Part shown: positions 1 to 11,692 of the stretch, one piece after another
Layout of the letters: every line of letters begins with the position of its first letter
How positions within the stretch are numbered: the stretch's first letter is position 1
NCBI RefSeq assembly: GCF_900199515.1
Contig: NZ_LT963434.1
Location: forward strand, 1,832,180-1,864,179
DNA: 32,000 nucleotides
Reading direction: 5' to 3'
Origin: Massilicoli timonensis
GTDB taxonomy: Bacteria > Bacillota_I > Bacilli_A > Erysipelotrichales > Erysipelotrichaceae
Made by a program: the position numbers and the translations under genes
Notes under the pieces: model-generated
The model's database searches: none
Seen by the model: the letters and a program-made list of their open reading frames with translations, nothing else
Told to the model about the DNA's origin: nothing

Positions 1-1
1 C

Positions 2-1066
2 CAGAGCTACGTTGATTTACTGTCATATTATGGGTTTGACATTGAACATGATCTGGTCTATCACGAAATAAAAGAACAAATCGTATCGCTGCATGATGCT
101 TTGAGCAGATGTGAATTAGAAAGCAGCAGTGCATTGCTTGAACAATTAGAACATCATTTATCTATACAAAATACCTGTATAGAGAGCATCAATCTGCGAT
201 TGTTTTTGCATAGACTGTTACAGTATGTAAAGAATGATGTTTATTTGAGTGAAAGCCAAATTGAAGCATTGTTATCTTATTATCAGAATAAGCCAAAACC
301 ATTGAAGGACCTCATTTTATATTATATGATCTATTCTGCTACTAAGATCAGCTTTACCTATCAGCAATATTTATATGAGAAGATAGAAGCATTACGCGTA
401 TCGGATTATTTGCCGATCATGGTTCATTATATGGGATATTTGATCAACTGCAAACAATTTCAAAAAGCGTTGTTATTAGGAAACGAAATCTATCAAAAAG
501 CGCATGAAACAAAAAATCACTATATGCTGTTTGAGTATTATGAGAATATGCTTGCTTATTATATTCGATATGAACCAAATCAAGTAGAGAAAACCCAGAA
601 ACAGATAGAAGCAATCATGAAGCAAATCCATTTTCCGAGAATCAAAAAGATGCAATACTATCGTAATTATGCCAAACGGTGTATTTCAAAGCATGAATAT
701 CAAAAGGCTTTAGCCGCATTTCAAGAGATACAAGAATACAGTTTACAAGGGAATGTTCATGATCGTGTGAGCATTATATATAATATCACTTTTTGCGAAA
801 GCCAACTTCAAATTCCTTATAGCATCGCTTATGATTATGCATTGAAAAAAGAACATTTTGAAAGCAAGGCTGATTATTATTTGTTTCAATATTTACTAAA
901 GAAGAACGATATGACAAATGCACAACGGGTTCGTTATTTGCATAAGATTGCGAAAGTCATGAAAGATCATGAGGATTATACGAAATTTCAAATAAGGGAA
1001 GAATTATATATGATTAGTATGAAAGATAAAAAGGCAGATCTTTTCCGCTATCTGGAGAATAGATAA
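2..1066 (+). CDS. Helical-repeat (TPR-like) regulator, C-terminal ~355 aa; 5' end lies outside the window. Candidate RNPP/Rgg-type peptide-sensing regulator.
   Basis: The frame of ORF 101..1066 stays open back to nt 2 (QSYVDLLSYYGFDIEHDLVYHEIKEQ...), so the gene is cut by the window edge. Composition is Tyr/Leu/Lys/Glu-rich and all-helical, with TPR-like segments (FQKALLLGNEIYQKA, HEYQKALAAFQEIQEY). A small secreted-peptide ORF follows directly. No HTH is visible in the window. Confidence 0.5.
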   Translation, partial: QSYVDLLSYYGFDIEHDLVYHEIKEQIVSLHDALSRCELESSSALLEQLEHHLSIQNTCIESINLRLFLHRLLQYVKNDVYLSESQIEALLSYYQNKPKPLKDLILYYMIYSATKISFTYQQYLYEKIEALRVSDYLPIMVHYMGYLINCKQFQKALLLGNEIYQKAHETKNHYMLFEYYENMLAYYIRYEPNQVEKTQKQIEAIMKQIHFPRIKKMQYYRNYAKRCISKHEYQKALAAFQEIQEYSLQGNVHDRVSIIYNITFCESQLQIPYSIAYDYALKKEHFESKADYYLFQYLLKKNDMTNAQRVRYLHKIAKVMKDHEDYTKFQIREELYMISMKDKKADLFRYLENR

Positions 1067-1194
1067 ATCACATAAAAAGTAAACAATTATGCAACTTTTT
1101 TCAGCGTTATCTAACCTATTTGTAAACAGTGGCATTTTGTTATGGCGTGTGATAATCTAAAGATAGGAAAGGAGTTTATAATAAAATTGTTGTA

Positions 1195-1317
1195 ATGATG
1201 AAAAGAACTAAGATATTATTAAAATTAGCATTGCTTTTCTGCTTGATCGTTTTGACGGCAAATGCAGTAGAAAGCATGCAACCGCGTTCAAGAGAAACGT
1301 GGATAGAAAAAAATTAA
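1195..1317 (+). CDS. 40-aa secreted pro-peptide candidate (MMKRTKILLKLALLFCLIVLTANAVESMQPRSRETWIEKN)
   Basis: Hand-translated; below the ORF-track size cutoff. It has a basic N-terminus, a hydrophobic core and an A-N-A|V cleavage-like site, leaving a 16-aa polar tail. An extended -10 (TGTGATAAT, 1148-1156) lies upstream. The SD GGAG (1171-1174) sits 20 nt from the ATG, which is suboptimal. It lies 128 nt downstream of, and co-directional with, the TPR-like regulator. Confidence 0.4.
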   Translation: MMKRTKILLKLALLFCLIVLTANAVESMQPRSRETWIEKN

Positions 1318-1342
1318 ATCATTTAATGAGAGAGGAGCAAAA

Positions 1343-1963
1343 ATGAAAAAAAAGATATTTATAACGGTATTGTTATGTTTGTTTTCAATTTCACCGATTT
1401 CTTTGCGAGCCAATGAACTTGAAAGAAACACGGTGGAATCAGATCATGAAATTGTAATAGAAAACGTTGATGAATTAAGTGATGCGGAAATTGATAGAAT
1501 CATGAAAAAAGAAACCGAAAAGTATTTAGAGCGTGTTGTTCCGGGTTATGCGGATGAAAAGAAAGTAAGAGCCAGACCGACCTATGAAACGGTCTACGGA
1601 ACAGCCAAAACGGTAACGATTGGCGGATATGCCGGAAATCAGCCGGCAGGAGGCAGAAGATTTAACACAGGAGGAGGCTTTTGGTTCTCTGATAGCGGTG
1701 GACCTACTGCTTCATTAAATGTATCTTTTCCTGCACCTTATGATTTGATCAGTGTTTCCGTTACGCTGGGATCAGTTGGAAGTAGCGGCGTATTTGTACT
1801 AGCTCCTGATACGACCCATTATTTTAAGCTTTATGTTTCCAAAAAAGTTCGTGTACAGCCATATGTCGTATATTATACAAACAGCCAAGGGAAGAAAACC
1901 GTATGGCTTAGAAGTAAAACTACGACAGTAACGAAGGTGGATCAATATGCAAAGCAAGTATAA
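1343..1963 (+). CDS. Secreted protein of unknown function (206 aa)
   Basis: RBS GAGAGGAG sits just upstream of the ATG. Signal peptide MKKKIFITVLLCLFSISPISLRA|NE. An acidic N-terminal region is followed by a Gly-rich, beta-rich C-terminal domain. No family recognised. Confidence 0.8.
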   Translation: MKKKIFITVLLCLFSISPISLRANELERNTVESDHEIVIENVDELSDAEIDRIMKKETEKYLERVVPGYADEKKVRARPTYETVYGTAKTVTIGGYAGNQPAGGRRFNTGGGFWFSDSGGPTASLNVSFPAPYDLISVSVTLGSVGSSGVFVLAPDTTHYFKLYVSKKVRVQPYVVYYTNSQGKKTVWLRSKTTTVTKVDQYAKQV

Positions 1964-2357
1964 ATTATTTGGCAGCATCATTTCTGTTATTTTGATCATT
2001 TTGCTTTTGGTATATTTAACAGTGAATCATTTTGCGATGCGTAAAGAATTGGCTGCCTATCAGGAAGAAAAAAATATCGTCGGTACGTATATGCTGGGCG
2101 AAGGGATCGTCAGCCAGTATTACTTGGTCCTGATGAAAGAAGACGGTGTGATCAAAGCCTCTTTTTATGAACAGCTTGGTGAAATAAAGGAATATACACT
2201 GGTGGAAACAGATGAGAAGGACACTTATTGCCTTAAAGATGTAGAGAATGTGTATCTTGTGTTTTATCCAAAGCAGGTTCATGTTCTACACGATAATCGT
2301 GTCGATCAGTTAGACAAGATCAAGGATACACCTAATTTTGTGAATGTAAAACAGTAA
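1947..2357 (+). CDS. N-terminally membrane-anchored protein of unknown function (136 aa)
   Basis: The ATG overlaps the 3' end of the upstream gene by 17 nt, suggesting coupling. Single TM helix (LFGSIISVILIILLLVYLTV). A terminator follows. Confidence 0.7.
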   Translation: MQSKYKLFGSIISVILIILLLVYLTVNHFAMRKELAAYQEEKNIVGTYMLGEGIVSQYYLVLMKEDGVIKASFYEQLGEIKEYTLVETDEKDTYCLKDVENVYLVFYPKQVHVLHDNRVDQLDKIKDTPNFVNVKQ

Positions 2358-2358
2358 G

Positions 2359-2385
2359 GGAAAGCATGAGAAGCTTTCCTTTTTT
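2359..2385 (+). terminator. Rho-independent terminator
   Basis: GGAAAGC (2359-2365) / GCTTTCC (2373-2379) hairpin followed by a T-run (2380-2385). Confidence 0.8.
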
Positions 2386-2503
2386 ATCAAGTCTTGATCA
2401 TAAGACAGTAAATTGATCGAATTTAATATACTTACTTTTATCTTTTTGATGATTTTGTTTTATGCTTCTTGTGATATAATGAAAATGTCAGGAGGAGTGT
2501 TCT

Positions 2504-2584
2504 ATGAAACCATTTGGAGAAGAACCCCGCTTTGTATTGCTCTTACGCATAGATCTTGCTTTTTCTGTAAAAAAGGAAAAGTAA
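2504..2584 (+). CDS. 26-aa small ORF (MKPFGEEPRFVLLLRIDLAFSVKKEK), possible leader peptide or small protein
   Basis: Extended -10 TGATATAAT (2472-2480). Strong SD AGGAGG (2490-2495) about 8 nt upstream of ATG 2504. Not in the ORF track because it is under 60 aa. There is no conservation evidence. Confidence 0.3.
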   Translation: MKPFGEEPRFVLLLRIDLAFSVKKEK

Positions 2585-2656
2585 AAAATAAAGCATAAAC
2601 GGCAGTTGTCGCAATAAAACACAATCATTCAATATTACAAAAACGAGGTATCATTT

Positions 2657-3025
2657 ATGGAGAATAATAAAACGCTTTATCTGGATGGTGTGTGCAATAA
2701 GCTTTTGCTTGTGATACAGCTTGCTTTCCTTGTTGCGGCGTTTATGACGCGCGAAACCAAAGGCTTTTTATGGGGCGGTATTTTATCCTTGTTGCTGGTC
2801 GAGTGGGTTTTGGAATATCTCACCTATCAAGGGAAATATGGCACATACTTCCGTTCAGGACGCTTTTGGATCATGGCTGTTTACTTGATCGTTATGCTGT
2901 TGGTGATCAGTCAGGATGCTTTTTTAAGTTTTTTGGCAGAGCATTTGTATCTGTATCCGCTTTTATTGCTAGGGTATATCTGGCGAACAGTCAAATTATA
3001 TAAAGAAACAAAAGCATCGCTGTGA
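2657..3025 (+). CDS. Small integral membrane protein (122 aa, ~4 TM)
   Basis: RBS GAGG lies 7 nt upstream. The sequence is hydrophobic throughout (LLLVIQLAFLVAAF, ILSLLLVEWVL, FWIMAVYLIVMLLVI, LYLYPLLLLGYIW). Confidence 0.7.
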   Translation: MENNKTLYLDGVCNKLLLVIQLAFLVAAFMTRETKGFLWGGILSLLLVEWVLEYLTYQGKYGTYFRSGRFWIMAVYLIVMLLVISQDAFLSFLAEHLYLYPLLLLGYIWRTVKLYKETKASL

Positions 3026-3250
3026 CAGGAAAAGTTTTTTGATCATCATCGTGATCGATCATCTGAGCAGTAAGTCTGATAGGGCTGCTGCTCTTTCATT
3101 GTCTGTTTACATATGATGCCGCACTGCTCGATCAAACGCTTTTCTATCATTTAGGGGCGTTTGTTTTTGATCACGATGGTAATCAGAGAGTATTACTTTT
3201 TACCCTTTTCTGCATTCGCGCAAACTTCCTCCTTTTTTATTGGTATAGAA

Positions 3251-3279
3251 TTGTATTTTCAAAGTAAAAAATGTAAAAT
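3251..3279 (+). promoter_or_regulatory. Sigma-A-type promoter for the ABC operon
   Basis: TTGTAT (3251-3256), 17-nt spacer, TAAAAT (3274-3279) preceded by TG (extended -10). Confidence 0.55.
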
Positions 3280-3319
3280 AGTAGTAAGCAGACAGACTAT
3301 CGTAAAAGGTGTGATCAAA

Positions 3320-4024
3320 ATGAGCAGTTATATTGAATTTCAAGATGTAAAGAAGATCTATCGCATGGGAGAAGTGGAAATTCCCGCGCTTGCAGGGGTC
3401 AATTTTACGATTGAAAAAGGTGAATTTGTCGTCATTGCCGGGGCGTCGGGTGCAGGGAAAAGCACCATTTTGAATATTTTAGGCGGTATGGACAGCTGTA
3501 CCGGCGGCAAGATCTATGTCGATGGCAATCTGGTAAGTGATTATAATGAGAAAGAACTGACGACTTATCGCCGTTATGATATCGGTTTTGTGTTTCAGTT
3601 TTATAATTTGGTGCAGAATCTGACGGTAAAAGAAAATGTGGAACTGGCAACGCAGATCTGTAAACATCCGCTGGATATTGATGAAACGATCGCGGCGGTT
3701 GGTTTAGCTGATCGTAAAAATAATTTTCCGGCACAGTTATCCGGCGGGGAACAGCAGCGCGTGGCGATTGCCAGAGCGTTGGCAAAAAATCCAAAACTGC
3801 TTTTATGTGATGAACCGACCGGTGCTTTGGACTACAATACCGGGAAACAAGTGTTGAAATTGCTGCAGGATACATGTCGGGAACGGGGGATCTGTGTGAT
3901 CGTCATTACGCATAATCTGGCGCTTACGGCGATGGGAGATAAGGTCATCAAGGTCAGAAACGGCCTGATCGAAAGCATTGAAATCAATGAAAATCCAATG
4001 CCGGTAGAAAGGATCGAATACTAA
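3320..4024 (+). CDS. ABC transporter ATP-binding protein, MacB/LolD-type
   Basis: Walker [11 protein letters not shown]-loop, signature LSGGEQQR, Walker [10 protein letters not shown]-loop ITHN. The likely start is ATG 3320 ([14 protein letters not shown]) after AAAGGTG. The 3161 start in the ORF track adds an implausible N-terminal extension. Confidence 0.95.
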
Positions 4025-7000
4025 TGAAAGCATATGTGCTGGATATCATCAGAGAAATGCGGCACAGCTTCGGCAGATTTTTCTCGATCATGGCGATCGT
4101 GGCGATCGGCACCGCCTTCTTTGCCGGTGTAAAGGCCAGTATTCCCGACATGAAATATACTGCCGATCAATATTACAAAGCGTATAACCTAATGGATATA
4201 CGATTGGTTTCAACGATGGGCTTTACCGATGAAGATGTGGAGGCAATCCGTGCAGTAGATGGATTAGAAGGTGTGATGCCGGCTTATTCCATGGATTTTT
4301 TGACACATTATGATACACAGCAGTATGTCGTAAAAGTAATCGGTTTATCCGGCGATGATCGAAATGATCCGAACTATATCAATCAAATGCGTTTGGTATC
4401 AGGCAGAATGCCGAAGAAAAGTGATGAATGTGTAATCGAAGAGCAGGAACTGATCAAGAGCGGTTTTGCGATCGGTGATACGATCCGGTTAGAAAGCGGC
4501 AGTGAAGATGCTTTAAGCGATACATTGAAGCGAGATACGTATCGTATTGTCGGTACTGTCTATACGCCGGATTATCTCAGTCATGAAAAGGGGACATCGA
4601 CGATCGGCAGCGGCAAGGTCGATCTGTTTATCGGAATCGATGCGGACAATTATTGCAGCGACTATTACAGTGAAGTGCTGGTTACGGTCAAAGGGGCAAA
4701 GGCATATAACAGCTATACGGACGCCTATTTTGATGTGGTGAACCAAGTGAGCGCGGCTTTGGAGCAGGTCGGACAAGATCGCAGCGACATTCGCTATGAA
4801 CAGATACAGACAAAGGCACAGGAAGCGTTAGCGGAAAAAGAAGCGCAGTATGAAGAAGCGCGTGCGGCTTTTGAAACTGAGATCAGTGAAGCGCAAAGTC
4901 AATTAGAAAGTGCAAGAGATGAAATTTTACTAGGACAGGCACAGCTAGAAAGCGGCAAGATCAATTTAGAAAGCACAGTTGCTTTGAGTGAAATGCAAAT
5001 TGCGCAAAATGAAGCAACGATCGCGCAGTATGAAATACAGCTGGAAGAAGTCGTGGCATTACAGAAACAGATGCACGAGCAATATGAACCGATCATCGAA
5101 CAGGCTGAAGCGCGTTTGAAAGAGCAGCAGGCGCAGGAAGCAAGGTTGCAGGCACAGCTGGCTGATCCGGCTTTGTCGCAGGCAGAAAAAGCGGCGTTGG
5201 AAACACAGCTGCAGCTTGTGCAAAGAGAGATCGCACAGTTAAAAAGTACGATCGAAAACAGTGAAAAAGCAGTTGTGACGGTGGATGAGAAAGTTGCGAC
5301 CTTTGAACAGATGATCGCAGACGGCAAGCGGCAGCTGGAGGAAGCGAAAGCAGCATTGGCTGCAAAAAAAGCGGAAAGCGAGGCGCAGTTTGCGCAGGCG
5401 CAAAAACAGTTGGACGCAGCGCAGGAGGCTTATGTAAACGGCAAATTGGAATTAGAGAAAAACCGTACTCTAGGCGAACAGGAGCTGTCTTTGGCAGCAG
5501 AAAAATTGGCGCAGGGAAAAGAACAGTTGTCTTCCTTGCCGGAACCGACCTGGTATGTGCTGGATCGCAATTCTCATTATTCCTATCGTGATTATGAGAG
5601 CGTAACCGAGCGAATGGATGGGATCGCCAAAGTATTCCCGGTGTTCTTTTTGCTGGTATGCGCACTTGTCTGTTTAACGACGATGACGCGTATGGTAGAT
5701 GAACAGCGCAGCATGATCGGTACTTATAAAGCGCTTGGCTATTCTAAAGTCGCCATTGCGATGAAATATGTCCTGTATGCGCTTGTTGCGGGCATTGTGG
5801 GCAGTGTGATCGGCTGTTTGATCGGTATGCATCTGTTTCCAAGCGTGATCTTTTATGCGTGGAACCTCATGTATAATTTGCCGGATCTCCAATTTGAAAT
5901 ACAAATTCCGTTGGCCCTGCAGGCATCGCTCAGCGTCATTGCGGTAACGATCGCAGCGACGATCTTTGCATGCTATCATGAATTGGTGGAAGTACCGGCT
6001 TTGTTGATGCGGCCGAAAGCGCCGAAAAACGGCAAGAAGATCATGCTGGAGCGTTTGTCATTTCTGTGGAGCCGCTTCTCTTTTACGCAAAAGGTTACGG
6101 CGCGCAATCTATTCCGTTACAAGAAACGCTTTTTCATGACAGTGATCGGTATCAGCGGCTGTACGGCACTGCTGGTGGCGGGCTTTGGCATTCAGGACAG
6201 CATTGCGGAAATCGTCGATAAACAGTATGAAGAGATCATGCAGTATGACAGCATGCTTACCTTTTCGGCAGACAGCACGTATCAGCAGCGCGATCAGGTG
6301 GAAACCAAACTGAAAGAAGATAAGCAGATCAAGGCATATGAGGGGATCATGCAGAAAAATGCAACGGTAAACGATGACGGCGAGGAAACAAATGTAACGC
6401 TGATCATCGCAGAGGACAGCAGTGATTTTAATGAATTTGTGCTGATGCAAAATCGCAGAAGCAAGGAAGAACTGCATTTGAACAGCGATGGGGCGATCAT
6501 AACGGAAAAACTTTCTAAGAATTTGGGCGTTTCGGTTGGCGACAACGTTTCGATCACTTTGGAAAACGGGCAGATGAAGGAAGTCAAGATCACCGGTGTC
6601 ATGGAAAACTATGTGGGCCATACGCTGTATATGACACCGGGTTATTACAAGGAATTAAGCGGTGAACGCACCGTGGTCAATGCGTATTATATCCAGATGA
6701 AAGAAGTGAGCGATGAAACGGAAGCCGCTTTGGGCAGCCGCTATATGGAATTGGATGGTGTTTCCTCTATGTCCTTTTACAGCGGTGTTGCCAAATCCTT
6801 TGAAGATACGATCGCTTCGATCTCTTTTGTCGTTTATGTTTTGATCGGTGCGGCGGGACTATTGGCGTTTGTCGTATTGTATAATCTAACGAATGTCAAT
6901 ATCAGTGAGCGCACCAGAGAAATTGCGACCATCAAAGTGTTGGGCTTTTATCCGAAAGAAGTTTCTTCGTATGTCTATCGGGAAAATATCGTACTGACTT

Positions 7001-7221
7001 TGATCGGCGGTCTTTGCGGGTTGGTGCTTGGCATCGCGCTGCATGCGCTGATCATGAATCTGGCGGAAATGCCGGAAGTGATGTTCGGAAGAAATATTGA
7101 GCCGCTTTCCTTTGTATATTCGATGATTTTGACGCTGGTGTTTGCGATGATCGTGAATATCGTCATGTATCGCAGACTGCGTCAGATTCCAATGGTGGAA
7201 TCACTGAAGTCGGTTGAATAG
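4024..7221 (+). CDS. Duplicated FtsX/MacB-type ABC permease (1065 aa) with a long coiled-coil insert in the first extracytoplasmic domain
   Basis: The start overlaps the ATPase stop (TAATG, 4022-4026). After an N-terminal TM and an extracytoplasmic domain comes a ~250-aa Q/A/E/L heptad-rich segment (nt ~4800-5530). An FtsX-like TM bundle follows (nt ~5620-6000). A second TM / extracytoplasmic domain / FtsX bundle forms the C-terminus (ERTREIATIKVLGF...). Confidence 0.9.
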   Translation: MKAYVLDIIREMRHSFGRFFSIMAIVAIGTAFFAGVKASIPDMKYTADQYYKAYNLMDIRLVSTMGFTDEDVEAIRAVDGLEGVMPAYSMDFLTHYDTQQYVVKVIGLSGDDRNDPNYINQMRLVSGRMPKKSDECVIEEQELIKSGFAIGDTIRLESGSEDALSDTLKRDTYRIVGTVYTPDYLSHEKGTSTIGSGKVDLFIGIDADNYCSDYYSEVLVTVKGAKAYNSYTDAYFDVVNQVSAALEQVGQDRSDIRYEQIQTKAQEALAEKEAQYEEARAAFETEISEAQSQLESARDEILLGQAQLESGKINLESTVALSEMQIAQNEATIAQYEIQLEEVVALQKQMHEQYEPIIEQAEARLKEQQAQEARLQAQLADPALSQAEKAALETQLQLVQREIAQLKSTIENSEKAVVTVDEKVATFEQMIADGKRQLEEAKAALAAKKAESEAQFAQAQKQLDAAQEAYVNGKLELEKNRTLGEQELSLAAEKLAQGKEQLSSLPEPTWYVLDRNSHYSYRDYESVTERMDGIAKVFPVFFLLVCALVCLTTMTRMVDEQRSMIGTYKALGYSKVAIAMKYVLYALVAGIVGSVIGCLIGMHLFPSVIFYAWNLMYNLPDLQFEIQIPLALQASLSVIAVTIAATIFACYHELVEVPALLMRPKAPKNGKKIMLERLSFLWSRFSFTQKVTARNLFRYKKRFFMTVIGISGCTALLVAGFGIQDSIAEIVDKQYEEIMQYDSMLTFSADSTYQQRDQVETKLKEDKQIKAYEGIMQKNATVNDDGEETNVTLIIAEDSSDFNEFVLMQNRRSKEELHLNSDGAIITEKLSKNLGVSVGDNVSITLENGQMKEVKITGVMENYVGHTLYMTPGYYKELSGERTVVNAYYIQMKEVSDETEAALGSRYMELDGVSSMSFYSGVAKSFEDTIASISFVVYVLIGAAGLLAFVVLYNLTNVNISERTREIATIKVLGFYPKEVSSYVYRENIVLTLIGGLCGLVLGIALHALIMNLAEMPEVMFGRNIEPLSFVYSMILTLVFAMIVNIVMYRRLRQIPMVESLKSVE

Positions 7222-7299
7222 GGAAAGGAGCGATGAAAAACAGGAATGACAGACGTATGATAAAATAAAGGTATGATGATCGGGAAGGGAGAAAATGAT

Positions 7300-8793
7300 A
7301 TGAAGTATGTAACAAAACGCAATTTAATGTATGTGAATATGGCTGCCGGCGTGGTCGGATTGATCGCTTTGTTGCAGCAGCTTACCCTGAAAAGCAGCTA
7401 TAACGGAAGTTTATCGGGAATCAGCGGACAGATTTCTTTTCTGTATTTTCTGTTTGTCGCTACGATCATTTTAGAACTGATCGCTTTGGGAATTGCGGCG
7501 ACAATCTATTTTTACCGCAAGGAGCAGGATCGCAACTTACTTGTTACGCTGGGGGTTGCGGCAGTGGTCCTGCTGGCGATGCTGCTGGCAAATTCCGCGG
7601 TTTCTATTCTGCGGGAAGCCGGTCAGGTTTTGAACGGAAATTTAGGCAGCGCTTTTTCGCTTTATTCCAAATACGGGAATATGAGTTCTGCTGATCTTAC
7701 CGCAAAAATGGAAAACGGATTAAAAATTTTGATTTTTGCTTATATCGTCAGCACTGTATATGGCGGATGCAATCTTTTCTTCTATTGGAAAAAGAAAGAC
7801 GGCTTTTTTGCAGGCGATGGGAAATTAGATGTCGATGTGCAGAAAGTACAGGAAACAAAGGAAGCGATGATGCAAAGCGCTGCTGATACGACAGAGGCAT
7901 TGAAACAGAACGTCAATACGATGACAGATAAAATAAAAGCCTTCTATCAGACGCCTAACGGCAAAAAAACAGTGCTGGGGATCGGTGCGGTAATCGTACT
8001 GTTATTGGGTTATTTGGTTTATGTGAATGTCTTTAAGAAAACGGATATCAATTTGATCAACGGATGCAAGATCAGCGTAGATGGGGATTCCGGAAACGGC
8101 TATGCGACAGTAAGCGGCTGTCAGGTCGCGTATAATCAAAATAATGACAGACTGGCATCGTTTGTGCACAATATCGAATATGAAGTGCAAGGCGAAAACG
8201 GAACCTTCCAAAACGGTGATCAGGTGCAGGTAAAAGCGGTTTATGACGAGGAAGAAGCGAAGGCGCTGAAGCTGCGCATCACTGATGATACGTTCAGTAC
8301 CGAAGTAAAAGGATTGATCGAATATTATGTGAGTGATGAGGATGTTCCGAAGAAAATCAAGAATGAAGTCGAAAAGCAGATGGAAGAGGCGCTCGCTTTG
8401 TTTATCGAGGATGTGGAATTGGGTGATCGCTATTTATCGTTAGATGATGATAAAGACATCGTGGTAACAGATCGGGAATTAAAGGGGAAACTGTTTCATG
8501 TAAATGATCTTTTCCAGTCATCGCGGGGCAGTTATATTTATATTTATCAATTAACGGTAGAAGGTCAAGTAAGAACCAGCTATTTTGACGATACCTATGA
8601 AGCACGAACGAGAAACGTTTATGTGTTATTTGAGACTGCATCGCTTTCTTCTGACTATTTGGAGGAACATCAAGATCTTGAAGAAAGCTATGATGTATTT
8701 GACAGCGATGATGACAGTTATGCGGATATGAAACTGGAAAAAATCGCGAAAAAGATCGCTTATTTGAGCGGACGATTAAGTGTGATAGAATAA
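7300..8793 (+). CDS. Polytopic membrane protein with a C-terminal extracytoplasmic domain (497 aa), unknown function
   Basis: RBS GGAAGGGAG (7283-7291) precedes ATG 7300 (MKYVTKRNL). There are ~4 N-terminal TM helices, a linker, a fifth TM (TVLGIGAVIVLLLGYLVYV), then a ~250-aa acidic soluble domain. It lies 78 nt after the permease gene with no intervening terminator. Confidence 0.8.
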   Translation: MKYVTKRNLMYVNMAAGVVGLIALLQQLTLKSSYNGSLSGISGQISFLYFLFVATIILELIALGIAATIYFYRKEQDRNLLVTLGVAAVVLLAMLLANSAVSILREAGQVLNGNLGSAFSLYSKYGNMSSADLTAKMENGLKILIFAYIVSTVYGGCNLFFYWKKKDGFFAGDGKLDVDVQKVQETKEAMMQSAADTTEALKQNVNTMTDKIKAFYQTPNGKKTVLGIGAVIVLLLGYLVYVNVFKKTDINLINGCKISVDGDSGNGYATVSGCQVAYNQNNDRLASFVHNIEYEVQGENGTFQNGDQVQVKAVYDEEEAKALKLRITDDTFSTEVKGLIEYYVSDEDVPKKIKNEVEKQMEEALALFIEDVELGDRYLSLDDDKDIVVTDRELKGKLFHVNDLFQSSRGSYIYIYQLTVEGQVRTSYFDDTYEARTRNVYVLFETASLSSDYLEEHQDLEESYDVFDSDDDSYADMKLEKIAKKIAYLSGRLSVIE

Positions 8794-9565: not shown

Positions 9566-10894
9566 ATGGACTATGTTTGGATGCAGTTTGAGAAACAAAA
9601 AGGGAAAGCGCTCTATCAGCAAATTCATGATTTTTTCGTAGAACAGTTATTAAGCGGTTATTGGAAGCAGGGCGATCATTTGCCTTCGATCCGCCGTTGT
9701 GCCGGTCTTTTGTCGGTATCGCTTACTTCTATTAAAAATGCTTATGCACAGTTGGAGGAGGAAGGCTATATTGAAGCGCTGCCGCGGCAGGGTTACTTTG
9801 TTTGTGTAAGTGAAGCAGGGGTAAATCTAAGAAAAGAACTGCTGCGCAGCGATGAAACAGAACAAAAGCCGCATTTCCAATATGATTTTAAGACATCGGC
9901 GATCGATGAGGCGAGCTTTGATTCCCTGAATTGGAAACGCTGTGTGCGTTTCGCCATGGAACAGGAGGATCTTTTGGAATATGGAGAGGTGCAGGGAGAG
10001 ACCGTGCTGCGTAAAGCTTTGCAGCGTCATGCGTACGGGTACCGCGGCATTGCCTGTCATGAAGATCAGATTCTAGTAGGAGCAAGCGTGCAGACGCTGC
10101 TGTATCAGCTTTGCGGCTTATTAGGCAAAAGAAAAATCATTTATATGCACACACCGCCCTTTTCACAGGCAAAGCAGGTATTTGAGGACTGTGGATGGGA
10201 AGTGCATTTATGCGATGTAACGGCGCTCACCCAAAACGACTGGGAAAAGATGTCTTTTCTATATTTGCATACGGTTGCATTCGGGGATGAGAAAGCACCA
10301 ATGCCAAGGCATTTGCGTAAAACGTATTGTGAATTAGCCAAACGGCATCATGTATATTTGATCGAAGATGATAAAAACGGGGAACTGCGTTATGTAAGAA
10401 GGAGTGAGAGCGCTTTGTTTGCGGCTGATGAAGGGGAACGGGTCATCTACCTCAGCACTTTCTCCAAACTGCTGGCGCCGTCCTTACGGATCGCTTATAT
10501 GATCCTGCCGCAGCCGTTAAAGCAACGCTATGAGGCGAAAAAAAGTGATTATAATCCGACTGCCTCTAAGATGGAGCAATTAGCATTGGCACGTTATTTG
10601 ACCAATGCGCACATGGAAAAGCATTTGAATCAGCTGCGGAAACGCTATGCCGAGAAGTATCGTAAAATGGCAGAACTGCTGCAGCGATCGGTACCGCATT
10701 GGGAATGGGTGCTGCATGAAACAGCTTTGCGTATCCATGTTCGCAAGGCATCCGTATTACCTGATGAAATACCCGAAGAAATCGCTTATGATGAAAATGC
10801 AGAAGAAATCATCTTGTCTTTTGCGAAAATCGACAGTAAAGATATGGAAAAGGCCTTTCAGCTGTTTGCCGATCATAAAATGGCAGGAAAATGA
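9566..10894 (+). CDS. MocR-subfamily GntR transcriptional regulator (HTH + class-I aminotransferase-like PLP domain), PdxR-like
   Basis: N-terminal GntR winged HTH (LPSIRRCAGLLSVSLTSIKNAYAQLEEEGYIEALPRQGYFV). The C-terminal fold-type-I domain carries the PLP-lysine motif STFSK. The start is probably ATG 9566, 7 nt after GAGG; the ORF track uses TTG 9545. Confidence 0.85.
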   Translation: MDYVWMQFEKQKGKALYQQIHDFFVEQLLSGYWKQGDHLPSIRRCAGLLSVSLTSIKNAYAQLEEEGYIEALPRQGYFVCVSEAGVNLRKELLRSDETEQKPHFQYDFKTSAIDEASFDSLNWKRCVRFAMEQEDLLEYGEVQGETVLRKALQRHAYGYRGIACHEDQILVGASVQTLLYQLCGLLGKRKIIYMHTPPFSQAKQVFEDCGWEVHLCDVTALTQNDWEKMSFLYLHTVAFGDEKAPMPRHLRKTYCELAKRHHVYLIEDDKNGELRYVRRSESALFAADEGERVIYLSTFSKLLAPSLRIAYMILPQPLKQRYEAKKSDYNPTASKMEQLALARYLTNAHMEKHLNQLRKRYAEKYRKMAELLQRSVPHWEWVLHETALRIHVRKASVLPDEIPEEIAYDENAEEIILSFAKIDSKDMEKAFQLFADHKMAGK

Positions 10895-11040: not shown

Positions 11041-11115
11041 CCGCTTATAGTATAAGGGATAGTACGAACCCCTCCTAAGGGTTAGATTCAGGTTCGAGTC
11101 CTGATAAGCGGGCCA
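11041..11115 (+). tRNA. tRNA-Arg (anticodon CCT)
   Basis: Hand-folded cloverleaf. Acceptor CCGCTTA/TAAGCGG, D stem GTAT/GTAC, anticodon stem AACCC/GGGTT with loop CTCCTAA, T arm TCAGG-TTCGAGT-CCTGA, encoded CCA. Confidence 0.9.
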
Positions 11116-11149
11116 TATTTAGGGATCCACTACCAGACAGTATCATCTT

Positions 11150-11224
11150 GCGTCCATGGTGAAAAGGATATCACATCAGATTCCGGTTCTGATATTGCGG
11201 GTTCGATTCCTGCTGGGCGCGCCA
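11150..11224 (+). tRNA. tRNA-Arg (anticodon CCG)
   Basis: Acceptor GCGTCCA/TGGGCGC, D stem GTGA/TCAC, anticodon stem TCAGA/TCTGA with loop TTCCGGT, T arm GCGGG-TTCGATT-CCTGC, encoded CCA. Confidence 0.9.
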
Positions 11225-11230
11225 TTTTTC

Positions 11231-11316
11231 GCAGATGTGGTGGAATGGCAGACACGCTACTTTGAGGGGGTAGTGGGCGTATGCCCGTGTGGGTTCAAGT
11301 CCCATCGTCTGCACCA
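11231..11316 (+). tRNA. tRNA-Leu (anticodon GAG), class II with a long variable arm
   Basis: Acceptor GCAGATG/CGTCTGC, anticodon stem CTACT/GGTAG with loop TTGAGGG, 15-nt variable arm (TGGGCGTATGCCCGT), T arm GTGGG-TTCAAGT-CCCAT, encoded CCA. Confidence 0.9.
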
Positions 11317-11326
11317 GTTATCGATG

Positions 11327-11349
11327 AAGTCCCAAAAGGGACTTTTTTC
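11327..11349 (+). terminator. Rho-independent terminator after the tRNA operon
   Basis: AAGTCCC (11327-11333), AAAA loop, GGGACTT (11338-11344), then a T-run. Confidence 0.8.
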
Positions 11350-11395
11350 AAAAACAAGGACATATAGTAAAAAGAAGCGGAAAGGAGCCTGTTTC

Positions 11396-11692
11396 ATGAA
11401 AGTAGTAAAAACCCCATCGTCTGTTTATGTGCTGTACGCACTTGCGATCGTTTTTTTATGTATTGCCACTTTTGAGATCTTTGGCTGTTACAGCGATATT
11501 CGATCTTTGATCGATTCTAATGATTTGATCGTATCGGAAAACATGACGTTCATTATTTCTTATTATCTGGAGCATGTTTCCGTGTATTTCGGCATCGCTT
11601 TTTTGCTTTATGCGGCAGGTGTGATCAGCGCTAAGCTCAATGAAGTGCATCAGGTCGTCTATCAGATGGCGGAAAAAAGCAAAGATAAATAA
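11396..11692 (+). CDS. Small membrane protein (98 aa, 2 TM), unknown function
   Basis: RBS AAAGGAG lies 8-9 nt upstream of ATG 11396 (MKVVKTPSSVYVLYALAIVFLCIATF...). The upstream 80 codons of track ORF 11156..11692 run through the tRNA genes and are an artefact. Confidence 0.7.
   Translation: MKVVKTPSSVYVLYALAIVFLCIATFEIFGCYSDIRSLIDSNDLIVSENMTFIISYYLEHVSVYFGIAFLLYAAGVISAKLNEVHQVVYQMAEKSKDK

Follow-up and report, generated by a model that had tools for sequence, protein, structure and literature searches.

The stretch analysed here, hereafter the window, comprises 32,000 nucleotides (nt) of the genome of Massilicoli timonensis, a gut bacterium of the family Erysipelotrichaceae (contig NZ_LT963434.1, positions 1,832,180 to 1,864,179 of the forward strand). 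Its 5′ end carries four co-directional open reading frames (ORFs), which encode a regulator, a 40-amino-acid (aa) product resembling a secreted pro-peptide, a predicted secreted protein of 206 aa and a predicted membrane-anchored protein of 136 aa. In our assessment, the chances are about even that these genes constitute a divergent, cell-density-sensing cassette of the RRNPP type, situated on a horizontally acquired low-GC island of this organism; that the cassette represents a new RRNPP-type subfamily is plausible but unproven. We regard the gene layout, the predicted fold of the regulator and the recurrence of a small ORF behind it as established, and the steps that would follow export of the small product are proposed by analogy. 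A cassette of this kind had been suggested in an earlier note made from the letters of the window alone, and all of the coordinates given there for the locus, including frames, gaps and heptamers, proved correct on rechecking.

In full, the regulator is a cytoplasmic protein 404 aa long (P0001/P0040), inside the range of 250–500 aa that serves as the length criterion for RRNPP receptors. Its first 50 residues are encoded upstream of the window, and from position 2 the frame is open throughout to a TAA stop codon. An AlphaFold2 (AF2) model, built from a shallow alignment, is all-helical and confident, with a predicted local distance difference test (pLDDT) score of 89.8 and a predicted template modelling (pTM) score of 0.82. 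Four short helices spanning residues 4–20, 25–29, 35–43 and 50–59 (pLDDT 82–90) make up an N-terminal domain, and the following 18 helices, residues 69–403, are arranged as approximately nine helix pairs in a TPR-like solenoid, the fold expected of an RRNPP receptor. When the model was compared with the PDB using Foldseek and the top 50 chains were considered, nearly all proved to be TPR/PCI solenoids. The bacterial chains in this set are all RRNPP receptors or RRNPP-like regulators, except for the TPR protein LapB at rank 17; the RRNPP-type matches are a Listeria protein (4ryk), PlcR (3u3w and 2qfc), Rap (8rst and 4gyo), Rgg2 (4yv6) and AimR (6s7i). The alignments cover the whole of the targets in the same N-to-C order, and the highest template modelling (TM) scores in the top 50 are those of Rap, at 0.49/0.53 for 8rst and 0.48/0.52 for 4gyo.

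Residues invariant in the regulator family cluster on two consecutive helices of the solenoid, 223–240 and 263–279, and comprise Asn222, Glu228, Tyr229, Tyr230, Tyr236 and Tyr237 around the first and Lys265, Gln268, Asn272, Tyr273 and Ala274 on the second. RRNPP receptors hold the backbone of their peptides through conserved asparagines. Asn222 and Asn272 may therefore hint at peptide contacts, which we treat as a lead and not as a test.

The 40-aa ORF lies directly downstream of the regulator gene on the same strand, across a spacer of 128 nt, and its length falls within the 10–100 aa expected of an adjacent RRNPP pro-peptide gene. It opens with an ATG-ATG pair at 1195, and its product, MMKRTKILLKLALLFCLIVLTANAVESMQPRSRETWIEKN, has a basic n-region (MMKRTK), a hydrophobic stretch in which the 9-residue windows starting at residues 7–17 have mean Kyte–Doolittle values of 2.0–3.4, and an A-N-A|V site at residues 22–24|25 (positions −3 to −1) that would leave a polar tail of 16 aa. 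The assessment as a Sec signal was made by rule, from the n-region, the hydropathy and the A-N-A site.

Comparable ORFs are found behind related regulators. In loci L009–L014, a 38-aa ORF, MNKKVKCIMAAFLMMMSSGIMLLLCSNEISVPLLSDRR, begins 258 nt after the regulator behind a GGAGGAG Shine–Dalgarno sequence and has been called as a gene on 27 contigs; in L006, a 57-aa ORF, MIRKLTQIILLYLFVVAPLFTKMC...GGEDFWE, follows at 140 nt. An annotated gene or a high-confidence ribosome-binding site, the ‘strict’ level of RRNPP_detector, is present for both the L009 ORF (GGAGGAG at about 7 nt) and the L006 ORF. Altogether, of the four lineages for which downstream sequence exists, three have a co-directional, signal-like ORF of 38–57 aa at a distance of 128–258 nt. 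A signal-ORF rule, written after the sequences had been seen, requires a basic N-terminus, an uncharged hydrophobic 12-mer, a polar tail and a length of 30–70 aa; it matches 7 of the approximately 1150 ORFs of 30–70 aa in 336 strand-kb. Three of the seven are regulator-adjacent, the window ORF being counted twice since it also occurs in L002, which leaves a background of 4 in approximately 1150 (about 0.35%). The L009 ORF misses the rule on tail hydropathy alone. Set against this background, an occurrence in three lineages is far beyond chance. The sequences of the small ORFs are unrelated between lineages, and this may be expected if each receptor is paired with a cognate peptide. The small ORF of L006 (P0007 lineage) has an acidic, cysteine-rich tail containing six cysteines.

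The four ORFs appear to be organised as one transcription unit. Its 3′ end is marked by a hairpin at 2356–2381 with a U-run (dG −12.1 kcal/mol; z −2.1 for the fold against shuffles), which bears out the clean terminator previously proposed after the 136-aa gene; the terminator scan lists the same hairpin on the minus strand. A matching terminator is found at 9899–9919 of L002, 5′ of the regulator's promoter, and the scan gave no plus-strand terminator between that point and window position 2356. Since there is a terminator on either side of the four ORFs and none between them, we conclude that they form a single terminator-bracketed unit. The start region of the regulator gene contains its own extended −10 promoter, TGTTATAAT, a strong Shine–Dalgarno sequence and a GTG start codon. 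The gap between the 40-aa and 206-aa ORFs, 1318–1342, is just 25 nt.

These elements suggest the following scheme. The regulator would be made constitutively from its extended −10 promoter. The 40-aa product would be exported by the Sec pathway and cut after Ala24, and its polar tail may be trimmed to a C-terminal oligopeptide within ...RETWIEKN, to be re-imported by an oligopeptide permease. Inside the cell, the peptide would bind to the concave face of the solenoid, where the invariant residues cluster, and switch the DNA binding of the regulator at one or more promoters with a weak −35 element in 1120–1190, so that the pro-peptide gene and the 206/136-aa module would be transcribed at a different level. 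The steps after export are modelled on PlcR, NprR, AimR and Rap (PMC9765709, PMC10075063).

Several results weigh against this scheme, beginning with the receptor. No Foldseek match in the PDB reached E < 1e-3; the RRNPP receptors were matched at E-values of 4e-3 to 6e-2 with TM-scores of 0.2–0.53, and eukaryotic TPR/PCI proteins (APC, Rpn6 and CSN subunits) ranked level with them. Because the E-values are weak and eukaryotic solenoids rank equally, the comparison supports the fold class and does not prove a specific kinship. At the sequence level, the best Pfam TPR match was TPR_2 at E 0.85–1.2, with 10 bits against a cutoff of 27, and NCBIfam gave no TPR match. More broadly, no significant match was obtained for the regulator or the other cassette proteins with the Pfam, NCBIfam, PHROGs and PADLOC profiles, nor any match of the regulator in the PDB sequences by phmmer or by hmmsearch with the family profile. 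The TPR-like regulator of the earlier note is thus sustained by predicted size, fold and domain order, and not by TPR profiles or by the strength of the Foldseek matches.

Assignment of the N-terminal domain as an XRE-type HTH is weakly supported. The N-terminus of the orthologous P0054 gave weak matches to XRE-HTH families (Pfam HTH_3, E 0.058; HipB, E 0.014), and local superposition on small viral HTH proteins in BFVD aligned 61–65 residues with a root-mean-square deviation of 2.1 Å at best; the BFVD fold search with the regulator model gave no significant match. Counting against the assignment, no HTH profile is significant for the window protein itself, the N-terminal alignment showed no similarity in hhalign to two HTH proteins verified with Pfam, and profile searches against PDB sequences returned no HTH match. 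For the XRE-type HTH that the earlier note proposed to look for in the full-length protein, the four-helix N-terminus and the weak orthologue matches speak in favour, and the hhalign and profile results against.

The small ORF and the spacer raise objections of their own. The sole Shine–Dalgarno-like element of the 40-aa ORF stands 20 nt from its ATG, compared with 5–9 nt for the neighbouring genes in which a Shine–Dalgarno sequence is recognisable. A hairpin that might bridge the gap was considered and rejected, its fold of −3.1 kcal/mol (z −0.99) being non-significant. The exact 40-aa sequence is absent among approximately 15 billion called proteins and was not called on any of more than 150 contigs, and the ORF falls below the ‘strict’ level of RRNPP_detector. 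It has no diverged orthologue: identity to the window is 99.8% or higher in all window-type loci (L001–L005, L008 and L021). In L007, no such ORF is found before a convergent MATE gene. Finally, the intergenic regions of four loci contain no direct or inverted repeat beyond chance, and no operator motif emerged from them. The secreted pro-peptide proposed earlier retains its basic N-terminus, hydrophobic core, A-N-A|V site and 16-aa tail, and is weakened by poor translation signals. The comparative check suggested with it returned a small signal-like ORF after related regulators in three of four lineages, with unrelated sequences and with none in L007.

Within the spacer, the promoter scan gave a candidate GTGGCA-16-TG-n-GATAAT at 1129–1156. 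A perfect TATAAT at 1177–1182 would yield a nearly leaderless mRNA for the small ORF. The fold of 1060–1135 is no better than that of shuffled sequences, and no Rfam family was matched within 1–3400. The heptamer GTAAACA at 1079–1085 and 1122–1128, offered in the earlier note as weak evidence for a binding site, is dismissed. Its 8 copies in the window, a number attained in 3 of 100 shuffles, compare with an expectation of 3.15 ± 2.0, and by our estimate about one repeated pair of 7-mers will arise by chance in an AT-rich spacer of 128 nt. Moreover, the second copy is altered by a natural single-nucleotide polymorphism (SNP), G1122A, in the variant contig L008.

The regulator family is small. 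When 1.84 billion representative proteins were searched exhaustively with HMMER, six were retrieved, one of them a window-type fragment; the other five and the window protein make up five lineages: the window type, P0002, P0003/P0054, P0005 with P0006, and P0007. P0005 and P0006 are a single gene interrupted by a stop codon. The relatives are 389–403 aa long, with identities of 34% for P0002, 32% for P0003/P0054 and 24% for P0007. Pattern scans of GTDB genomes, JGI metagenomes and IMG/VR, made with two family alignments, added no member, and a tblastn search of phage and plasmid collections with the regulator gave no match. The exact window-type sequence, P0040, is present on 151 contigs, and identical or near-identical copies of the locus occur on many human-gut contigs.

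A further point against a functional receptor is that three of the five lineages contain in-frame premature stop codons, and intact alleles are known for one of these. The stops are a TGA at codon 12 (L007, 1003–1005), a TAA at about codon 288 (L015–L018; 915–917 in L016) and a TAG between the HTH-like domain and the solenoid (L009, ~5992–5997, ..TTG TAG CCT..). The TAG and TAA were seen repeatedly across samples, the TGA on one contig. The nonsense allele of the P0003 lineage is accompanied, on about as many contigs, by intact 403-aa alleles (P0054 and P0055) that encode Gln where the TAG stands. Reassignment of a stop codon was rejected, since the stops are of three kinds and the intact allele encodes Gln in place of the TAG. 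The interruptions could reflect decay, or they could be receptor-null ‘cheater’ alleles. In the variant M. timonensis contig L008, a 43-nt deletion at window positions 780–822 splits the regulator into ORFs of 316 and 74 aa.

The 206-aa and 136-aa genes form an independent, self-standing two-gene module. The 206-aa protein belongs to a family of 32 homologous clusters, none with a Pfam domain, that share the motif GYAGNQ..GG.RF.TGGGF.FSDSGGP ... YFKLYV ... YAKKV (alignment A5); the family is conserved and unnamed. Downstream of the homologues there is nearly always a gene for a partner of about 130 aa whose N-terminus carries a transmembrane segment or lipobox, as is the case in all Firmicute partner proteins. 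The partner evolves fast, and its members are related only transitively (L024 to L030, E 8e-6; L030 to the window, E 0.044); the 17-nt gene overlap of the pair is also present in L030. The family is found in integrative and conjugative elements, plasmids and chromosomes. The pair occurs on conjugative or mobilisable elements, adjoining genes for ParA, relaxase, TraG/VirD4 and RepA_N, and in L030 at an ordinary chromosomal site; a homologue stands alone in Lederbergia and beside an unrelated downstream gene on Clostridium tetani plasmids of 58–68 kb. In none of these relatives whose context was inspected (L022–L027, L030 and L032) does the pair adjoin the regulator family. As the module is found elsewhere in the absence of the regulator, its description as the direct target of the regulator, put forward in the earlier note, rests on adjacency in one species. 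Adjacency and the common bracketing terminators speak for that description, and the self-standing nature of the pair against it.

The AF2 model of the 206-aa protein has a beta-rich core at residues 80–206, with pLDDT mostly above 90, and Foldseek found no significant neighbour for it in the PDB. Its list of weak matches is enriched in aerolysin-type pore formers, the best being LSL (1w3a), epsilon toxin (1uyj), parasporin-2 (2ztb) and 3kog. An aerolysin/ETX-MTX2 fold is nonetheless unsupported at E-values of 0.07–1, a probability of at most 0.2 and TM-scores of at most 0.22, and there is no Pfam match. The label DUF3139, attached to one UniRef member of the 136-aa cluster, was not reproduced by Pfam. 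Profile scans, including PADLOC, gave no match to a toxin, immunity or bacteriocin family among the cassette proteins. In the variant contig L021, one base is lost from the A7 run at window positions 1304–1310, which would fuse the small ORF in frame to the 206-aa gene. Since single A's are missing from two other homopolymers of L021 as well, these losses are probably assembly or sequencing errors.

The cassette occupies a low-GC island extending over approximately 1–3350 of the window (9900–13500 in L002). The regulator and the small ORF have a GC content of 29–33%, the 206-aa gene about 44% and the 136-aa and 122-aa genes 38–41%, compared with 45–55% in the flanks; because the composition is so uneven, the island looks mosaic. 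No integrase, transfer genes or repeat boundaries were found around 1–3350. A mobile setting is plain in the P0003 lineage, where the regulator lies in an integrated mobilisable element beside smpB with a serine recombinase and a Mob_Pre relaxase (L009, 1–9300), and its cargo is a two-transmembrane protein of 64/69 aa and a 321-aa lipoprotein. Among the six copies sampled (L009–L014), SNPs are confined to the lipoprotein gene and its upstream spacer, the regulator and the two small ORFs having none. In the P0007 lineage (L006, 7310–10978), the small ORF is followed by genes for a secreted protein of 109 aa and a permease of the DUF1430 type with its ATP-binding cassette (ABC) ATPase, and by a 51-aa ORF, a layout that looks like a bacteriocin locus. 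DUF1430 has been annotated as bacteriocin-associated; Pfam itself gives unknown function only. Homology of the 206-aa protein to the 109-aa secreted protein is unsupported. Since the cargo differs while the regulator and small ORF persist, the stable unit is the regulator with its small ORF and the cargo is interchangeable, which fits a portable sensor module. The link to mobile elements, seen in the P0003 element and in the GC island of the window, may be counted in favour of an RRNPP-type system.

Much of the same evidence can be read without a peptide. The regulator could be a peptide-independent HTH/TPR-like transcription factor or an orphan receptor for another stimulus, the small ORFs being exported or membrane proteins among the cargo or, in the window, a chance ORF in the leader of the 206-aa gene. 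The poor Shine–Dalgarno spacing of the window ORF and the failure of any annotation to call it would then be explained, as would the lack of a small ORF in L007 and the dissimilarity of the three small ORFs, whose tails range from 13 to 35 aa and differ in chemistry, one being cysteine-rich; TPR solenoids, moreover, bind diverse ligands, and Foldseek does not tell RRNPP receptors apart from other TPR proteins. We nevertheless hold this explanation to be rather unlikely, since signal-like ORFs, with a background frequency of about 0.35%, stand directly after the regulator in three lineages that are independent of each other, two of these ORFs are preceded by canonical Shine–Dalgarno sequences and are called in many assemblies, and the pairing of regulator and small ORF is kept while the cargo varies. 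The locus may instead be a bacteriocin-like module of effector and immunity protein, with the 206-aa protein as effector, the 136-aa protein as protector, the 40-aa product as an accessory or effector peptide and the regulator an ordinary local one. Such an arrangement would account for a conserved secreted protein paired with a fast-diverging anchored or lipoprotein partner across a conserved 17-nt overlap, for the spread of the module over mobile elements, for the DUF1430-type permease and ABC ATPase beside the L006 regulator and small ORF, and for the aerolysin-type entries in the weak Foldseek list. That resemblance is non-significant, however (E at least 0.07), no toxin, immunity or bacteriocin family was matched, and the small-ORF tails have an acidic or polar character, not a cationic and amphipathic one. 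We consider the proposal improbable as an alternative; it is also compatible with quorum-sensing control, for it concerns the output and not the sensor.

Least favoured is that the island is a decaying remnant of a mobile element in which the regulator/peptide and 206/136-aa modules were joined by chance. The mosaic composition, the presence of the cassette without integrase or transfer genes, the TGA, TAG and TAA stops of related lineages and the 43-nt deletion in one M. timonensis contig are what decay might produce. Yet the 404-aa ORF is intact, with a nearly invariant main allele on 151 contigs; its promoter, Shine–Dalgarno sequence and bracketing terminators are preserved; and in the P0003 lineage an intact 403-aa allele exists alongside the nonsense allele. 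We judge a remnant to be very unlikely. The RRNPP-type cassette may also be stated in a more ambitious form, in which a subfamily invisible to profiles is confined to a few gut Erysipelotrichaceae-like lineages and mobile elements, its pheromone switches on a module of secreted effector and membrane partner (possibly with toxin/immunity or conjugation-accessory functions), and the receptor-null alleles are natural ‘cheater’ variants. Taken together, these propositions are speculative, and we would be somewhat surprised if all of them held.

The coordinates of the cassette and of the gene that follows it are collected in Table 1.

Table 1. Features of the cassette region, in window positions
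Feature	Position	Strand	Remarks
Regulator, candidate RRNPP-type receptor	2..1066	+	C-terminal 354 aa of 404-aa HTH-like + TPR-like protein
Intergenic spacer, no terminator inside	1067..1194	+	128 nt; two candidate promoters and two GTAAACA
Shine–Dalgarno-like GGAAAGGAG	1166..1174	+	End 20 nt 5′ of small-ORF ATG
40-aa ORF, candidate secreted pro-peptide	1195..1317	+	Signal-peptide-like N-terminus, polar tail VESMQPRSRETWIEKN
206-aa secreted protein (predicted)	1343..1963	+	Conserved unnamed family; good Shine–Dalgarno
136-aa protein, N-terminal membrane anchor (predicted)	1947..2357	+	17-nt overlap with 206-aa gene
Intrinsic terminator closing four-ORF unit	2356..2388	+	Hairpin 2356–2381, then UUUUUUA
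122-aa polytopic membrane protein	2657..3025	+	Within low-GC stretch, 3′ of terminator

The 122-aa protein gave no family match in profile scans, and its gene is missing from the homologous 206/130-aa modules at other loci. At 3320–8793 lie genes for an ABC ATPase, a 1065-aa permease of the MacB/FtsX type with a long Ala/Glu/Gln-rich, coiled-coil-like insert, and a 506-aa protein without a family match. The ATPase and permease were rejected as members of the cassette, since Amedibacillus dolichus has a pair that is 66% identical with unrelated genes upstream. The rest of the window is ordinary chromosome with cdaA-ybbR-glmM, pyrB, phosphotransferase system genes, a two-component system and tRNAs. 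A tRNA cluster at 11041–11316 comprises Arg-CCU, Arg-CCG and Leu-GAG; a 178-aa ORF at 11156–11692 is almost certainly spurious because it overlaps two tRNAs.

To our knowledge, no peptide quorum-sensing system has been described in the Erysipelotrichaceae, and the literature library searched contained no paper naming both RRNPP and this family. The cassette would be a very narrow new RRNPP subfamily. Should this be correct, it adds a subfamily missed by Pfam and NCBIfam profiles and implies that screens with sequence profiles underestimate the diversity of RRNPP systems. An inducing condition would, in addition, offer a first way into the function of the unannotated secreted 206-aa/130-aa module, which is common on conjugative elements and plasmids of Firmicutes. 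If it is wrong, the locus is one more island of hypothetical proteins. As M. timonensis is a cultured human-gut isolate (PMC6796691), the prediction is directly testable.

The criteria applied here derive from the five-criterion signature of RRNPP(A) systems (PMC10075063). Receptor length, propeptide size and adjacency agree with that signature, the TPR solenoid being assigned from the predicted fold and not by hidden Markov model, and the Sec signal by rule only. Mobile elements are common carriers of RRNPP systems (PMC10075063, PMC9765709), and an N-terminal XRE-type HTH is present in all RRNPP(A) subfamilies except Rap (PMC10075063). Judged from the predicted model, the cassette is closest by architecture to AimR–AimP and NprR–NprX, and by superposition to Rap. 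The solenoid of AimR has about nine repeats, and AimP is about 43 aa long. Foldseek aligned the regulator to AimR (6s7i) over 401 columns, the AimR chain having 387 aa against 404 aa here. Like the arrangement predicted for the window, AimR of Bacillus phages joins an N-terminal DNA-binding domain to a TPR solenoid (PMC9765709, PMC10075063), and the gene of its Sec-exported pro-peptide lies directly downstream and co-directional, with a regulated gene next, on a mobile element. The systems differ in that AimR has no sequence similarity to the regulator and the window has no phage context (no relatives of the regulator were found in IMG/VR, INPHARED or BFVD); here the peptide gene is preceded by a 128-nt spacer and followed by genes for exported proteins in place of an aimX-like locus.

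Rap–Phr systems, from Bacillus chromosomes, plasmids, ICEBs1 and phage phi3T, supply in their peptide-bound Rap chains the highest TM-scores of the top 50. They resemble the cassette further in the phr-like gene after the receptor, whose Sec-exported pro-peptide provides the signal from its C-terminus (PMC9765709), and in being frequently on mobile elements. In contrast to the four-helix HTH-like N-terminus predicted here, Rap carries a three-helix bundle in place of an HTH and works through protein–protein interaction, and rap and phr usually overlap or abut.

PlcR has five TPRs and a palindromic PlcR box; no palindrome was found at the locus in the window. PlcR–PapR and NprR–NprX of the Bacillus cereus group combine an XRE-HTH + TPR receptor with a pro-peptide gene directly downstream, the peptide being Sec-secreted, processed and re-imported by the oligopeptide permease Opp and secreted proteins being activated as the output. 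The PlcR structures 3u3w and 2qfc are among the top structural matches, although their chains are 280–284 aa against 404 aa here, and sequence profiles detect NprR and PlcR (PMC9765709) but not the regulator.

The Lactobacillales systems Rgg/SHP, ComR/XIP and PrgX/TraA have receptors with an N-terminal HTH, as is tentatively proposed here, and Rgg2 (4yv6) was matched, the matched chains being 264–273 aa against 404 aa. Rgg-type peptide genes are often divergent. Rgg-type peptides have no Sec signal and leave the cell through PptAB (PMC10075063), whereas the small ORF of the window has a candidate Sec-type signal of the classical kind by our rule. PrgX controls functions of a conjugative plasmid. 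The TPR-like folds of Rgg and PrgX, as that predicted for the regulator described here, also escape TPR sequence profiles (PMC9765709).

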